In this document: piece by piece, positions 4,687 through 12,538 of the stretch
Layout of the letters: each line of letters opens with the position of its first letter
Position numbering within the stretch: position 1 is the first letter of the stretch
Sequence record: NC_007023.1
Reading direction: 5' to 3' (one strand)
DNA length: 64,000 nucleotides
Source of the DNA: Escherichia phage RB43
The notes under the pieces: model-generated
Seen by the model: only the letters and a program-made list of their open reading frames with translations
What the model was told of the DNA's origin: nothing
Database searches by the model: none
Position numbers and translations under genes: made by a program

Positions 4687-6975
4687 ATGATTTCAAAACT
4701 TAACCCGTTACCAAAGATCCCGTTTGTTGATGGTGTCCCTTCGGACACCACACAAACCCCGATCAACTGGATAATTAACGGCGAAACTCTCGATGGTGCT
4801 AAAACCAAAGTCACTAACGAGGGTTCTTTAAACAGGTGCGGTGTTCTGGTACAAAAGAACGCGGTGCAATTAGAAACCAACACCATTACACAGACTGCAA
4901 AAATCAACGAAGTTATCGATCAGGTTAACCTCATTAGTGAAAACCTCGCGGCTATTTCTGATGAAAGCGTGATTGACAAACTGGATCAGGTTGTTGCTGA
5001 TGTAGAAGTGTTGAAAGTTGATATGACTGCGGTTCAAGGTTCTACTGCAAGCAATACCCTGAAAATCCAGGATCTCGATAAAGAGATCGGGACGTGGGAC
5101 GCTTCAACAGATCCTAAACACCGTACCATTCGAAAAGATATTATTTTCCTGAAAGGGGAAATGGGTGCGTACCCTGGGTTTAACGAAAACGGCGACGTAG
5201 ATCCGACATCAACGGGTTCCGGCATGAAATACAAAATCATGACGAACGCGCAAGCGATTTCGATTCATGAAGGACGTATTACGCGCCTTGAAGATGATTG
5301 GGCTAACTCAGACGTAGGTCATTTAACTGATGAAGTAACCGATCTGCGTAACGAAATGGGGCCAAAACATTTAGCGACATTTGAATCTGTATATGTTCGC
5401 CTGAACACTATCGGTACTGAGATCACTGGTATCAATTCCGAACTAACCAGCATCAACCAATATATCGGTCGTACTGGCACGGGTGGAACTGGTAGTATTT
5501 CTGCGCGTATGACTACGGCAGAATCGAATATCGCAACCCTGCAAACGCAGATGAATGATTCTGCTACTGGTGTATTACCTCGCGTAATTTCTTTGGAAAA
5601 TGCTGTCGGTAACTCTCAGATCCCTGGTAGTATTCGTTACGACATCAGCGCAATCAAACGTGACATCGGTGATATCAACATGATCGTCGGTGAATCAAGC
5701 GATGATGGTCTTCGTGGGGAAATGGCTCAGGTTATGACCGATATCGGTACTGATTCACAGCCTACGAGCATCAAAGGCCGTTTGCTGAACGTTGAGAACA
5801 CCCAACGTGACGATCATCAGAAACTGATTGACGTTGAATCTGTTGTTGGTAATACTTCAAGTGGACTCGTTGCGGCTAATATCGCGATGGGTAAAGCTGT
5901 TTACGGTGATGCAACGAGTTCTGATCCATTCCTGAAAGACGGTATTCAGAAAACAGCGCGTGACAGTAAAGCGGCTATCGGTGTAAACACAACCGGATCT
6001 GAAACAGGGATCTATAAACTGATTTCGGATTTGACTGCTCGTGTTGCTGCACTTGAAAGCGGTACTGGTGGCGAACTTGAACAACGTGTTTCTGATTTGG
6101 AAACCAATAAAGCATCGCATCAGGACGTTGCAAACGCATTGGTTCCGTATATTACCGAAGCGGAAGCAGATGTTAAGTACGAACCGAAGAAAATTCCGTT
6201 ATCGTTTACGCAAAACCTTGTTGGGCGTGGCGATTATATCGAAGGTGATGACATTTCTTTCATGGTTACGGTAACAGGTGGTAAACTGCCTTATGTCTAC
6301 CAGTGGAAGAAAGGAACCGCTGATGTAGGTACTAACGCATCGAGCATTCTGATCCAAAGCATTACCTCTGCCGACGCTGGCGTGTATAAAGTTGTTGTTA
6401 CCGATGCAGACAACACCGTAATTACTTCTGACGAAGTGACGGTTGCTGTTTATCCGGTTCCTCAGTTTGATACTAACCTGGCTGACAAATCGGTGGTTGA
6501 CGGTGATCCTCTGACTCTGGAAGTTGTATACAGCGGTGGTAAACCTCCGTACACTTACGAATGGTTCAAAGATAACTCTGTTATCTCTGGGGAAACATCA
6601 GCAACATTTACCAAATCTGCTGTTACAAGCGCTGATGCTGGTGAATACTATGTTTCTGTAACTGACGCAATGAACAACCAAAACGATTCAGTGAAAGCAA
6701 CCGTGACTGTAACACCTCGTCCGGCTCTTGCATTCACTACGGATCTGAGTGCTACTAAATCATACAGCACAGGTGCTAACATGGATCTTGCTGTTGTCGT
6801 GACTGGTGGTAAAACACCATATACGTATAAATGGTTTAAAGACACTGCGGAAATTTCCGGTCAGACAGGTGCAAGCCTTACCACTGTAGCAGAAGATGGG
6901 GTGTATAAAGTCGAAGTGACGGATGCACTAACGACTAAAATCACATCAACTGAATGCACGGTAACTGTGGCATAA
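4687..6975 (+). CDS. wac: fibritin (whisker/neck fibre, wac) with atypical C-terminal triple Ig-like array
   Basis: N-terminus (PFVDGVPSD...INWIINGETLDGA) matches T4 fibritin; long heptad-rich middle; last ~255 aa form three ~85-aa Ig-like repeats (GGK.PY.Y.W.K...SADAGVYKV.VTD); no foldon-like sequence. Confidence 0.8.
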   Translation: MISKLNPLPKIPFVDGVPSDTTQTPINWIINGETLDGAKTKVTNEGSLNRCGVLVQKNAVQLETNTITQTAKINEVIDQVNLISENLAAISDESVIDKLDQVVADVEVLKVDMTAVQGSTASNTLKIQDLDKEIGTWDASTDPKHRTIRKDIIFLKGEMGAYPGFNENGDVDPTSTGSGMKYKIMTNAQAISIHEGRITRLEDDWANSDVGHLTDEVTDLRNEMGPKHLATFESVYVRLNTIGTEITGINSELTSINQYIGRTGTGGTGSISARMTTAESNIATLQTQMNDSATGVLPRVISLENAVGNSQIPGSIRYDISAIKRDIGDINMIVGESSDDGLRGEMAQVMTDIGTDSQPTSIKGRLLNVENTQRDDHQKLIDVESVVGNTSSGLVAANIAMGKAVYGDATSSDPFLKDGIQKTARDSKAAIGVNTTGSETGIYKLISDLTARVAALESGTGGELEQRVSDLETNKASHQDVANALVPYITEAEADVKYEPKKIPLSFTQNLVGRGDYIEGDDISFMVTVTGGKLPYVYQWKKGTADVGTNASSILIQSITSADAGVYKVVVTDADNTVITSDEVTVAVYPVPQFDTNLADKSVVDGDPLTLEVVYSGGKPPYTYEWFKDNSVISGETSATFTKSAVTSADAGEYYVSVTDAMNNQNDSVKATVTVTPRPALAFTTDLSATKSYSTGANMDLAVVVTGGKTPYTYKWFKDTAEISGQTGASLTTVAEDGVYKVEVTDALTTKITSTECTVTVA

Positions 6976-7010: not shown

Positions 7011-7934
7011 ATGATTACGAACAATCCTGAACAATTGAAGGATGAAATTCTTCGTCGTCTGGGCGCACCAATCATCAAAATCGAAATCACACAAGACCAG
7101 ATTTACGATTGCATTCAACGCGCACTGGATCTGTATGCGGAATATCACTACAACGGAACAAACAAAAGTTACATTATCCTTACGTTAGGCGAAGACAACC
7201 CGCGAAACGTATTTGATTTGAGTAAAGAACATATTTTCGCGGTTACAAAAGTATTGCGTACAAATATCGGTTCATTGGTTTCTATGGACGGTACAGCGGT
7301 TTATCCGTGGTTTACTGATTTCCTGATGGGGCTTACTGGTGGTTCTCTGGGCGGTCGCTGTGCATCAAGCGTGTACGGTATGAATGCATATGGCGCGGAT
7401 CTGGGGTATTTTACACAGATGATGTCATATCAACGTTCAATGCAAGAGTTGCTGGCTCCATTACCTGATTACTGGTACAACGATGACACTGGTCAGTTTT
7501 GTGTATGGGGTAAAGTCAACAACGGTGATATTATTGTCATTGAAGTGATGGTAAGATCCTTTGTCGATGTTCCTAGTGCCGTAGGAAGCGTTGCAGGATA
7601 CGCTACAGCGGGTTCTAACGCAGTAGAAGACCAATCCATAGCCGACATCTACGATAACCCGTATAACGCGGTTGTGGGCGGTGTACGAGCGGGACAGGGT
7701 ACAACTGTTACTGGTGGAACCTCTGCATATAACAACCGTTGGGTAAAAGACTACTCAACCGCGCTGGTAAAAGAAATCAACGGGCAAATTCTGGCTAAGT
7801 TTCAGGGTATGCAATTGCCTGGTGGTGTTGCTCCAGATGGAACACGACTGATTCAGGAAGCGGAAACCAAATTACAAGGATTGCGCGACGAACTGATTTC
7901 TATGTCTGACGCAGTTCCTATTATTATGGTGTAG
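7011..7934 (+). CDS. 13: neck protein gp13
   Basis: 307 aa; ...LGAPII.IE.T.DQIYDCIQRALDLY...NNRWVKDY..AL.KE.NGQILA... matches T4 gp13. Confidence 0.9.
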   Translation: MITNNPEQLKDEILRRLGAPIIKIEITQDQIYDCIQRALDLYAEYHYNGTNKSYIILTLGEDNPRNVFDLSKEHIFAVTKVLRTNIGSLVSMDGTAVYPWFTDFLMGLTGGSLGGRCASSVYGMNAYGADLGYFTQMMSYQRSMQELLAPLPDYWYNDDTGQFCVWGKVNNGDIIVIEVMVRSFVDVPSAVGSVAGYATAGSNAVEDQSIADIYDNPYNAVVGGVRAGQGTTVTGGTSAYNNRWVKDYSTALVKEINGQILAKFQGMQLPGGVAPDGTRLIQEAETKLQGLRDELISMSDAVPIIMV

Positions 7935-7942
7935 GGGGAATA

Positions 7943-8689
7943 ATGCAAAACTGGGATGAAAGTTTATTCGCTCAGTTGTCAACGGGGGAGGGAGTCGATC
8001 GCAACTTAAAGGATCAAGTCACTAACCCGTATGTAAACTGGTACAAATATAACCCAACACAACAGCTACATGATTCACTTACAGCAGAATCAATCCAGAT
8101 GAAATCACCTGATATGTATTATGTCAGACGTGAATTTGTGAATATAGATAAAATTCTGGGTGAAGACCGAGAGTCTAAATTCACGAAATCGTGGAAGATC
8201 GCTGCATATATTGAATCATATGCTAACTATGAAGGACAGCGGGACTTCTTTAGCAAATTCGGGTTGAGTTCTAACGACGAAATGACGCTGGTACTAAATC
8301 CGCGTTTATTTGCACATCAAACTGATGGTGGTATTCCGGTGCTGGGGGATTTGGTTTATTTCCCAATGGATAACAGCTTGTTTGAAATTACATGGGTGGA
8401 AGCAGATCCGTTCTATCAGTTCGGTGATCGTCCTCAACGTAAAATCAACCTGGCTAAATTCATCTACACGGGCGAAGAATTGGCTCCTGAATTGCAGCGA
8501 AACGAAGGAATCCATATCGAACCTGATGCAGAACTGGATCTTGAACCTATTCGAAATCTTGACGGGCTGGCAGATATTAACATTGAACAGTACGAAGAAG
8601 ACAAAGAATTTGAAAGAGAAGGTGACGAGTTTATCGAATCTTTTGATGTTGTCAACGGTCGCGGTTCTCCGTTTGCTACACTGCCCTAA
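7943..8689 (+). CDS. 14: neck protein gp14
   Basis: 248 aa ORF directly after gp13 in T4 order; good RBS (GGGGGAATAATG). Confidence 0.8.
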   Translation: MQNWDESLFAQLSTGEGVDRNLKDQVTNPYVNWYKYNPTQQLHDSLTAESIQMKSPDMYYVRREFVNIDKILGEDRESKFTKSWKIAAYIESYANYEGQRDFFSKFGLSSNDEMTLVLNPRLFAHQTDGGIPVLGDLVYFPMDNSLFEITWVEADPFYQFGDRPQRKINLAKFIYTGEELAPELQRNEGIHIEPDAELDLEPIRNLDGLADINIEQYEEDKEFEREGDEFIESFDVVNGRGSPFATLP

Positions 8690-8761
8690 ATACAAATAGG
8701 GGAAACCCTATATATGTTGGGGTGTATGGTGAAAACCTGCACCCGATTCAAAGAGGATCTT

Positions 8762-9376
8762 ATGATATACACAAAACTTAAAGAATGGTTGCCTCATGAT
8801 CTATACGTTGAGTATGTTGATATCATAACGGCTTCACCAAAAACAGAATACACAGAAAAACATCATATATTACCACGATCGCTATTTCCTGAATTTGAAA
8901 ACGACCCAGACAACTTAGTAGAACTTGATGTGATGAAGCATTTGATGGCTCATAGGACATTAGCAAAAACCAATGACCATAAAATGATTCTCGCGTTTTT
9001 CATGATGTTCACCTACGAACATAAACGTTATTCTACATTGTCAGAACAGGAACAACAATTTATTCTTGAAGAAAAGACAAAAGCCCGTGAAGCAATGCGT
9101 GTTGTTAAAAAAGAACAGATGAAAGGTAAATATGATGGTGAAAACAACCCATTTTACGGAAAACGACATACTGATGAATTTAAGAAAATGATGGGTTCTG
9201 TGCATAAAGGTAAGAAGTTATCACCAGAACATTTAGCAAATCTCGTTGCCGCACACAAAGGCAAAAAACGAGAAAAAGTAAAATGCCCCCATTGTGGGAT
9301 AATGTGCGCCGCTAATACAGCAAAGCGCTGGCACTTCGATAACTGTAAGTCTGGACTTGTCCAGCAGGGGGATTAG
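8762..9376 (+). CDS. free-standing HNH homing endonuclease with NUMOD-like repeats (start could be upstream ATG 8714)
   Basis: HHILPRSLFPEF...NLVELDVMKHLMAH HNH motif plus repeated NPFYGKRHT / GKKLSPEHL / GKKREK NUMOD3-like motifs; RBS AGAGGA before ATG 8762; sits between gp14 and gp15 where T4 has no gene. Confidence 0.75.
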   Translation: MIYTKLKEWLPHDLYVEYVDIITASPKTEYTEKHHILPRSLFPEFENDPDNLVELDVMKHLMAHRTLAKTNDHKMILAFFMMFTYEHKRYSTLSEQEQQFILEEKTKAREAMRVVKKEQMKGKYDGENNPFYGKRHTDEFKKMMGSVHKGKKLSPEHLANLVAAHKGKKREKVKCPHCGIMCAANTAKRWHFDNCKSGLVQQGD

Positions 9377-9427
9377 AAAATTTTCGGATATTGGTATAAT
9401 AGTTCGCTGCGTAACTATATCGTTCTT

Positions 9428-10203
9428 ATGGGACAATTGTTTAACCATGTTCAAGTTAAACGAGTGCGTGGCGAACAAGAAAAATTCATTAAGGTTCCGA
9501 TTACCTATGCTTCAAAAGAGAAGTTTCTCGCTTCCATGAACAAACTCAACTACACGTTGAGTCAGGAAAACGTAGCGAAAACGGAAACCATTTTACCGCG
9601 AATGAATCTATCACTGGTGGACCTGCAATATAACGCAATTCGTAAAACCAGTATCGCGGTTAACCAGAAAATGTCGCAGTTACAAGCACCGCGTAAAACG
9701 ATCACACAGTTTAACCCTGTGCCATATCGTCTAATCTTTGAACTGGGTGTGTACACTCGTTACGAAGACGATATGTTTCAGATCGCAGAACAGATTTTGC
9801 CTTATTTTCAACCGCATTTCAACTGCAAGATTACCGAACTGCATAAGAACGAAATCAAAGTTGACCGAGACATCAAAATTAGTCTCCAATCGGTTGCACC
9901 AGATACAACGTTTGAAGGTGATGTTACCCAGCGCCGACACGTTGAATGGTCTTTCATGTTTGAATTACAGGGTTATCTGTACCCGCCTGTGACTGATGTC
10001 AAAGGTGAAATCAGAACAGTATACACGGATTTCTTTGCAAATATGAACCCACTGGACAAGGATAACTTTGAATCAGTGGACAGTCAAGCAGATCCGGTTG
10101 ATTTACCGCTTCAAGATTATACAGGCGAAGAATACATTCAGACTTATTCGCGCAACACGCCGATCCCGTCTGGTGATGAACCTCCGAAGCCGAGGGGAAC
10201 ATA

Positions 10204-10204
<1 letters not shown>
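9428..10204 (+). CDS. 15: tail sheath stabiliser / completion protein gp15 (first ATG; conserved N-terminus continues upstream to 9380)
   Basis: Matches T4 gp15 (FIKVPITYASKE...ILPR.NL.LVD...YEDDMFQIAEQILPYFQPHFN...PPKPRGT); 17 further conserved codons upstream lack ATG/GTG/TTG (see finding). Confidence 0.85.

Positions 10205-12538
<2,334 letters not shown>

Follow-up and report, generated by a model that had tools for sequence, protein, structure and literature searches.

Gene 15 of Escherichia phage RB43, which codes for the tail terminator (tail sheath stabilizer) gp15, probably initiates translation at an AUU codon, and the Shine-Dalgarno (SD) sequence that would serve it sits in the last codons of a MobE-like homing endonuclease gene occupying the spacer between genes 14 and 15. 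We put the probability that full-length gp15 (274 amino acids, aa) starts at AUU 9380 at roughly 0.8, on the strength of sequence comparison, thermodynamics, and structure. Coordinates refer to the window, the whole 64,000-nucleotide (nt) stretch of the RB43 genome (NC_007023.1; a Pseudotevenvirus) that was analyzed; it matches the RB43-GVA records (HE981739, HE858210) across 7900-10300, with a single base difference, at 9307, within 7400-10800. A first-pass annotation of the same DNA, made without database searches, had already proposed AUU initiation, and this stands as the best explanation of the data.

In the proposed mechanism, ribosomes would be recruited by AGGGGGA (9366-9372), which lies immediately 3' of a small hairpin with little other structure around it, and initiator tRNA would read AUU 9380. 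AUU would then be the codon actually used, with the strong SD compensating for the weak codon. The endonuclease gene, the SD, and the ATT codon (together with the following TTC) would move as one block, such that homing into an empty site would swap, by gene conversion, the resident weak-SD/ATG region for the strong-SD/AUU one. The endonuclease would presumably be active and target the 5' end of gene 15.

Translation start of gene 15

The features at the start of gene 15 are as follows.

9351-9364, + strand: small hairpin CTGGA-CTTG-TCCAG, folding at -5.5 kcal/mol and ending 1-2 nt 5' of the SD
9366-9372, + strand: SD AGGGGGA for gene 15, 7 nt 5' of the ATT
9374-9376, + strand: TAG stop of the endonuclease open reading frame (ORF), in frame with gene 15 and 3 nt 5' of the ATT
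9380-9382, + strand: ATT, proposed gene 15 initiation codon; positional homolog of the ATG in T4, CfP1, GuL6, leB, and others
9383-9427, + strand: gene 15 codons 2-16 (FGYWYNSSLRNYIVL), a conserved N-terminal segment that is lost with a Met17 start
9428-9430, + strand: ATG of the conserved internal Met17, the start in most GenBank annotations of HNH-bearing relatives; no SD
9464-9466, + strand: GTG, the gp15 start in the RB43 GenBank records; no SD
9380-10204, + strand: full-length gene 15 (gp15), 274 codons plus TAA

The endonuclease TAG lies in the gp15 frame, as the first-pass annotation had it, and only AAA (9377-9379) separates it from the ATT. The codons that follow were said to match the N terminus of T4 gp15, and in a phmmer search the isoleucine encoded by ATT (residue 1) is aligned with Met1 of T4 gp15 (PDB 3J2M/4HUD; E = 7.6e-86), with query residues 1-272 spanning residues 1-271 of the T4 chain and the ATT plus the next 15 codons aligning residue for residue with T4 residues 1-16. 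RB43 gp15 also matches Pfam PF16724 over residues 4-257 (E = 1.5e-97), and its homology to the T4 gp15 family thus extends over the full length, N terminus included. Codons 2-16 read TTC GGA TAT TGG TAT AAT AGT TCG CTG CGT AAC TAT ATC GTT CTT, followed by ATG 9428. Direct reading of the sequence bears out that there is no ATG, GTG, or TTG between the endonuclease TAG and ATG 9428, leaving an in-frame ATT at the homologous start and no canonical start codon between the upstream stop and the next AUG.

Pairing of the mRNA with the anti-SD has a free energy (dG) of -9.4 kcal/mol before ATT 9380, compared with +0.6 kcal/mol before ATG 9428, which has no SD in the preceding 20 nt, and -0.2 kcal/mol before GTG 9464; the contrast between a strong SD at the ATT and none at ATG 9428, also part of the earlier proposal, is therefore confirmed, with functional spacing at the AUU and no SD at either alternative start. 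The same calculation gives -8.5 to -10.3 kcal/mol for eight ATT alleles, -7.8 to -8.7 kcal/mol for TTG alleles, and -4.3 to -7.3 kcal/mol for four ATG alleles. The gene 15 SD segment CAGCAGGGGGATTAGAAAATT is identical in all 14 HNH-bearing loci compared, despite flank divergence of up to 23%.

The hairpin 5' of the SD is also kept, with other stems in L027 (GCTGCT/AGCAGC), L035 (GCTGGA/TTCAGC), and L038 (GCTGG/CCAGC; loci and contigs of the comparison carry L numbers), and the endonuclease tail encoded across it varies although its position is kept. Because the hairpin stays with different stems while the encoded tail varies, an RNA-level role is suggested, e.g., mRNA protection or keeping the SD exposed. 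Folding of 9320-9440 shows the region to be less structured than shuffled controls (z = +1.4). We considered and rejected RNA structure that masks or exposes the gene 15 start, given this z value and the small hairpin 5' of the SD as the only conserved structure.

The codons between the AUU and the next AUG are constrained at the protein level, with the caveat that recombination with ATG alleles may contribute. Among 11 ATT-start sequences, codons 2-16 have a synonymous difference proportion (pS) of 0.92 and a replacement proportion (pN) of 0.16, i.e., saturated synonymous change with few replacements (pN/pS 0.17), and by this measure the segment is under purifying selection among ATT genomes; a codon table of the RB43-related set likewise shows that differences in codons 2-16 are almost all synonymous. 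The N-terminal segment is among the most conserved parts of gp15. In 53 homologs reaching down to 51% identity, F2, R11, and Y13 are invariant and M1, G3, Y6, N7, S8, and S9 are at least 90% conserved, whereas nonconservation of these residues in relatives had been named by the first-pass annotation as one result that would speak against an AUU start. AlphaFold2 (AF2) predicts a helix at residues 9-20, most of which a Met17 start would remove, and a salt bridge links gp15 R11 to gp14 E227 in the T4 virion (PMC12929629).

Start codon and the state of the 14/15 junction

The endonuclease gene and the block in which it appears to travel have the following layout.

8753-8757, + strand: endonuclease SD GAGGA, 4 nt 5' of ATG 8762, read from sequence
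8762-9376, + strand: free-standing MobE-like homing endonuclease gene (204 aa) with NUMOD3 and a probable HNH motif, an exact match to YP_239192
8749-9385, + strand: mobile block running from the endonuclease initiation region through its ORF, with the hairpin and SD, to the first two codons (ATT, TTC) of gene 15; 100% identical in Miller

A NUMOD-containing endonuclease had been predicted for 8762-9376 at a junction that is gene-free in T4, and both parts of that prediction hold: NUMOD3 (PF07460) scores 28.4 bits against a cutoff of 20.4, and the 14/15 spacer of T4-type loci (L030-L032) is about 40 nt and contains no gene. The Pfam HNH model scores 12 bits, below its cutoff of 21.4; PHROG matches are to phrog_655 (homing endonuclease; 1e-46) and phrog_12434 ('HNH endonuclease'; 8.5e-14), and the GenBank name of YP_239192 in RB43 is 'MobE mobile endonuclease'. 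An ortholog alignment shows invariant H34, H35, N51, H60, H64, and C175-x2-C178...H191-x3-C195. This CxxC...HxxxC knuckle ends at Cys195 (codon 9344-9346), and the last nine endonuclease codons (9347-9373) run across the gene 15 initiation region; after Cys195, the tails covering the hairpin and SD are unrelated between the RB43 and Acj9 (Acinetobacter phage) endonucleases. An upstream ATG at 8714 is not conserved, with Miller and CfP1 having TAG right after the corresponding ATG. The initiation region of the endonuclease (AAAGAGGATCTTATG; 8750-8764) resembles the gene 15 initiation regions of endonuclease-free L036/L037 and L028 (AAAGGGGATTTATTTTG; GCGAGGATAACCCCAAATG), and it looks as if the element captured a resident gene 15 SD for its own use.

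Of 77 related records, 16 have the endonuclease at full coverage and the rest lack it or have something else in its place, and the gene thus lies between conserved genes with a presence/absence polymorphism among close relatives. In RB43-GVA, A replaces C at 9307, so that TGC (9305-9307) becomes a TGA stop and the endonuclease is cut short; this laboratory derivative, although viable, thus carries a dead element.

We compared 14/15 junctions of isolates and metagenome loci in the RB43-related set, and the start codon of gene 15 follows the state of the junction.

MobE-like gene present: ...CAGCAGGGGGATTAGAAA ATT TT(T/C) GG, 14 of 14 loci (RB43, RB43-GVA, Miller, KKP_3664, Taquito, Dev_CS701, HMGUkp1, PF-CE2, KLB25, KLB21, phi1_146002, Fraggle, L027, and L035)
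Empty site: ...ACAGGAAAATAAA ATG TTT GG (or similar), 8 of 8 loci (CfP1, GuL6, phi5, leB, L024-L026, and L028)
Unrelated CapR-domain endonuclease: GAAGGAGTATAAAA TTG TTT GG, 5 of 5 loci (RB16, Lw1, leE, Cronuts, and phi1_146015)

The comparison with junctions lacking the insertion had been put forward as a check on the AUU proposal, and the uniform ATG of the empty sites agrees with it. The third base of the start codon is the sole gene 15 polymorphism fixed between element-bearing and empty alleles, and ATT is kept in the 4 of the 14 MobE-bearing loci in which the endonuclease is decayed, frameshifted, or largely deleted (KLB21, phi1_146002, Fraggle, and L035). ATT is carried by more than 10 other phages and six metagenome contigs besides the window and RB43-GVA. 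The RB16-type endonuclease, which has a CapR-homology domain (phrog_681), lies in the same 14/15 spacer (RB16, L004 1348-2073; L022; L061-L063); its final codons contain AAGGAG, and the gene 15 that follows starts at TTG. We note that four of the six Logan contigs (L014-L019) with the exact RB43 endonuclease end about 300 to 350 nt into gene 15, within the stretch where RB43 and CfP1 diverge (from 9427), which is consistent with assemblies broken by mixed populations.

Miller gives the clearest view of mobility. In a three-way alignment it is CfP1-like at all informative sites save the 8749-9385 block, which is RB43-identical, and three isolated exceptions; the informative-site pattern is CCCC|RRRRRRRR|CCC..., with the left switch placed in the 8736-8749 interval and the right one in 9385-9427. 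CfP1 has 24 nt (AAACCCATACAGGAAAATAAAATG) in place of the block, and its spacer homology with RB43 stops after CACCCGATT (8740-8748). As judged from the alignment, a recent homing event with very short co-conversion tracts would leave just such a mosaic, which is evidence of horizontal spread with co-conversion of flanks. Because a CfP1-like backbone carries an RB43-identical block containing ATT, homing brought the ATG-to-ATT change into a new genome. In older lineages, the element and ATT have long been inherited vertically, because the identity of the endonuclease gene to that of RB43 tracks the identities of gp14 and gp15: the values for HNH gene, gp14, and gp15 are 90.0, 90.4, and 88.4% for Taquito, 82.4, 80.8, and 79.9% for KLB25, and 76.9, 77.4, and 77.6% for L027.

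Distant lineages also have ATT at the gene 15 Met1 codon, each time with a strong SD 4-7 nt upstream. In Acj9 and the IMG/VR contig L069 it follows an orthologous endonuclease (46-57% identity) and the SD AAGGAG; the Acj9 endonuclease ORF (L075 842-1444) overlaps roughly the first 50 nt of gene 15 in a different frame, and that of L069 stops at a TAA one nt before the ATT. Thirteen Hadassahvirus records are endonuclease-free and have ATT, with AAGGAGAATCAAAATT identical to that of Acj9, and Bragavirus phiP4-3, which is endonuclease-free, and vB_SdyM_006 have GGGGGTGGGTT ATT. Metagenomic L038, L058, and L059/60 have ATT behind GGAGGT with 7-nt spacing. L038 and phiP4-3 have no canonical in-frame start upstream, and L058 has Leu at position 17 in place of Met17 and hence lacks an internal AUG fallback. 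L038 and Hadassahvirus keep exactly the part downstream of the point corresponding to endonuclease Cys195. When IMG/VR was scanned for gp15 genes with an ATT start and Phe at position 5, the sequences retrieved (L070-L074) were all unrelated. A TTG start of gene 15 is found in Lazarusvirus (39 records) and L036/L037. The Dhakavirus phages vB_EcoM_005 (L079) and KIT01 have an orthologous endonuclease at the same junction and keep ATG, in a TAATG overlap. Two simple rules were rejected on these data: that ATT is obligatory for this endonuclease family, given the Dhakavirus orthologs, and that ATT occurs solely with the endonuclease, given L038, L058, Hadassahvirus, and phiP4-3. Taken across these genomes by sequence comparison, the 14/15 junction is an endonuclease hot spot of the Straboviridae, with at least two endonuclease families in four genera.

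Alternative starts and the role of the element

Several points weigh against initiation at AUU 9380. AUU is a poor start codon that is discriminated against by initiation factor 3 (IF3), and AUU mRNAs, which E. coli ribosomes do translate when the initiation region is favorable, are less active than AUG mRNAs and compete poorly with them, especially at low temperature (PMC5499595). The conserved in-frame AUG (Met17) could yield a truncated product, AF2 confidence is low for gp15 residues 1-6, and a literature search found no proteomic or ribosome-profiling data on the gp15 start in these phages. SD strength by itself is not diagnostic, because the ATG allele of Acj61 also has a strong SD (AGGAGG), and the same allele led us to reject, as a strict rule, the confinement of strong SDs to non-ATG alleles. 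Miller shows that homing can put ATT beside codons that evolved in an ATG genome, and some of the purifying-selection signal could therefore predate the ATT state instead of reflecting selection within it. Output of gp15 from AUU is expected to be low and IF3 sensitive, which would suit a protein needed at six copies per virion.

A start at AUG 9428 (Met17) or GTG 9464 would give an N-terminally truncated functional gp15, and the 16 upstream codons would be a relic, recent and untranslated, of the gene as it was before the insertion. Nearly all annotators chose ATG 9428, the first canonical start codon, and homing can import upstream codons from ATG genomes and so could mimic their conservation, but we consider such a start unlikely. 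Neither codon is preceded by an SD, Met17 is a conserved internal residue that is also present in ATG-start homologs, and the lost segment would include three invariant and five nearly invariant residues, most of the 9-20 helix, and the gp14-contacting R11. ATT genomes with a dead or absent endonuclease retain the 16 codons intact, the low pN/pS includes lineages whose nearest sampled ATG relative (Acj61) matches at just 73% nucleotide identity, and L058 has no Met17 from which to start. The other explanations fare worse. Termination at UAG 9374 followed by reinitiation, which would make gp15 dependent on endonuclease translation, would suit the short stop-to-start distances (3 nt in RB43, 1 nt in L069, and the Dhakavirus TAATG overlap), and coupling has been proposed for T4 mobE and nrdA (PMC2988022). 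As an obligatory route it is very improbable because the endonuclease ORF is nonsense-interrupted, deleted, or absent in several viable ATT phages; moreover, the Acj9 ORF terminates well inside gene 15, and a strong SD stands at canonical spacing in every case, as independent initiation predicts. Translational coupling may nevertheless add to gp15 expression where the endonuclease ORF is intact.

Readthrough of UAG 9374-9376 into an endonuclease-gp15 fusion is suggested by the shared frame in RB43, with only TAG AAA between the two, and had been ranked below AUU initiation, correctly so, as other genomes do not preserve the in-frame ORF-stop-ORF arrangement. As a general mechanism, readthrough is excluded: Acj9 and L069 have the endonuclease in a different frame from gene 15, and several viable ATT phages lack an intact ORF. 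RB43-GVA has a TGA 22 codons upstream (9305-9307), most of the endonuclease is gone from Fraggle, phi1_146002, and L035, there is none at all in L038, Hadassahvirus, or phiP4-3, and all of these keep ATT and the 16 codons. A 480-residue fusion would also be an unlikely component of a hexameric ring, and we give readthrough hardly any weight. Least credible of all is that the ATT is a sequencing error or laboratory-stock mutation, or that RB43 gene 15 is a pseudogene; nothing speaks for this beyond the rarity of ATT starts, and ATT is present in the original RB43 sequence and RB43-GVA and was recovered independently in six metagenome contigs and more than 10 plaque-forming isolates. The gene 15 frame is intact and highly conserved.

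Initiation at AUU 9380 is thus favored, and the part of the mobile element in it is a separate matter. The first-pass annotation held that the insertion had reshaped the translation start of gene 15; the Miller mosaic is one clear case of this, but as a general cause the claim stands only in part, because ATT exists without the endonuclease and the Dhakavirus ortholog keeps ATG. The SD and ATT may instead be a resident variant of the initiation region beside which the element inserted and which it now carries, because the SD and hairpin follow Cys195, the last conserved residue, and endonuclease-free L038 has homologous sequence. It is also possible, though we hold this tentatively and by analogy with T4 MobE, that the start-codon change is a self-immunity mark: the enzyme would recognize the conserved beginning of the gene 15 coding sequence and nick it at, or right beside, the ATG, and ATT (or TTG in the RB16 type) would escape, the strong SD compensating for the altered codon. 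If so, the endonuclease-free ATT alleles (Hadassahvirus, phiP4-3, L038, L058, and L059) would be scars of past invasions or resistance alleles in an arms race, and a selfish element would be pushing an essential phage gene onto a noncanonical start across several genera.

Gene neighborhood, annotation, and known systems

The synteny in the RB43 window is 13-14-(homing endonuclease gene)-15-16-17, with the following features flanking the endonuclease and gene 15.

7011-7934: gp13
7943-8689, + strand: gene 14, neck protein gp14 (248 aa), from the ORF list; Pfam PF11649, E = 6.5e-87
8690-8748, + strand: native 14/15 spacer, common to endonuclease-free relatives, from the junction comparison and three-way alignment
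8696-8711: hairpin ATAGGGGAAACCCTAT in the native spacer, an inverted repeat
10204-10740: gp16
10703: start of gp17

Upstream of gp13, a 762-aa ORF (4687-6975) is fibritin-like (Fibritin_C) with several Ig-like domains, as judged from the Pfam matches listed for the identical gene in contig L015. A T4 late promoter core-like ATAAATA overlaps the gp14 stop codon in RB16, leB, AbTZA1, Kimel, phiP4-3, and T4-type loci, and RB43 has a weaker CTAAATAC in its place (8685-8692). No exact T4-type late promoter TATAAATA was found near the RB43 14/15 junction, and a terminator and promoter scan of 8500-9600 gave nothing above chance on the + strand.

No record examined (RB43, 11 other HNH-bearing loci, Acj9, two Hadassahvirus records, and phiP4-3) uses the ATT as the gp15 start, and in every one gp15 is either 16-28 residues too short or begins at a GTG inside the SD. 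RB43 gp15 is annotated in GenBank from GTG 9464 as a 246-aa product, 28 residues short (YP_239193, AAX78739, and CCL97678), and exact protein look-ups found this version as the deposited one and did not find 274-aa or 258-aa versions of RB43 gp15. Among the 11 other HNH-bearing loci fetched, 10 have gp15 annotated from Met17, and PF-CE2 has a start further in, giving a 199-aa product. The endonuclease-free ATT phages Maestro and AB-Navy71 (L056/L057) and phiP4-3 (L076), as well as L058-L060, have gp15 annotated from Leu16/Met17 or from the SD-internal GTG. In RB16-type loci, gp15 is annotated at full length because gene callers accept TTG. The start error likely affects dozens of GenBank records and derived protein clusters (257- to 259-aa 'gp15' entries), related records outside the examined set probably share it, and the mis-annotation passes into protein databases.

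An essential virion gene appears to use AUU in at least five T4-like phage lineages. The ATG, TTG, and ATT alleles form a natural series with matched SD strengths, in which to see how SD strength offsets a weak start codon. Miller, in which a homing event replaced the translation signals of a neighboring essential gene, offers a concrete cost or side effect of free-standing endonucleases, and the 14/15 hot spot is a tractable target for endonuclease specificity. Neither an ATT/AUU start for gp15 nor a start-codon change linked to an endonuclease turned up in literature searches.

To our knowledge, AUU starts are extremely rare in bacteria and phages; the E. coli genes infC and pcnB are initiated at AUU, and T4 baseplate gene 26 reportedly has an internal AUU start (Nivinskas et al. 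1992). The likeness to RB43 gene 15 lies in a rare AUU behind an SD that would be read by initiator tRNA. The RB43-type AUU differs in that only part of a phage group has it in place of the ATG of an essential virion gene, in that it alternates with ATG and TTG alleles, and in its physical linkage to a gene for a mobile endonuclease; in contrast to infC, an autoregulatory role is not evident.

T4 MobE is a free-standing HNH homing endonuclease encoded between nrdA and nrdB (PMC2790892; PMC2988022). It nicks the 5' region of the downstream gene, and mobE genomes carry polymorphisms there that are proposed to block self-nicking (PMC2790892). The RB43 protein resembles MobE in its GenBank name, in NUMOD3 with a probable HNH motif, and in the free-standing position of its gene between conserved genes, together with presence/absence polymorphism and co-conversion of the downstream gene flank. 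The RB43 element is at 14/15 and not at nrdA/nrdB, and its activity and target are predicted. The RB16-type endonuclease is similar in occupying the same spacer, with a strong SD in its last codons and a non-ATG gene 15 start in all five loci, and differs in belonging to an unrelated protein family and in its TTG start. T4 SegF and SegG exemplify intronless homing and marker exclusion (cited in PMC2790892 and PMC2988022), and the RB43-type endonuclease gene likewise appears to spread with short flanking donor tracts, the Miller mosaic having the expected structure. The converted tract in Miller differs in being very short (<26 nt on the left and 9-50 nt on the right) and in including function-bearing signals, the SD and start codon, and not just silent markers. 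AUU initiation and homing with co-conversion are thus each already known; what is new is that the two appear to be combined at an essential virion gene, that this recurs from genus to genus, and that the gene is systematically mis-annotated.

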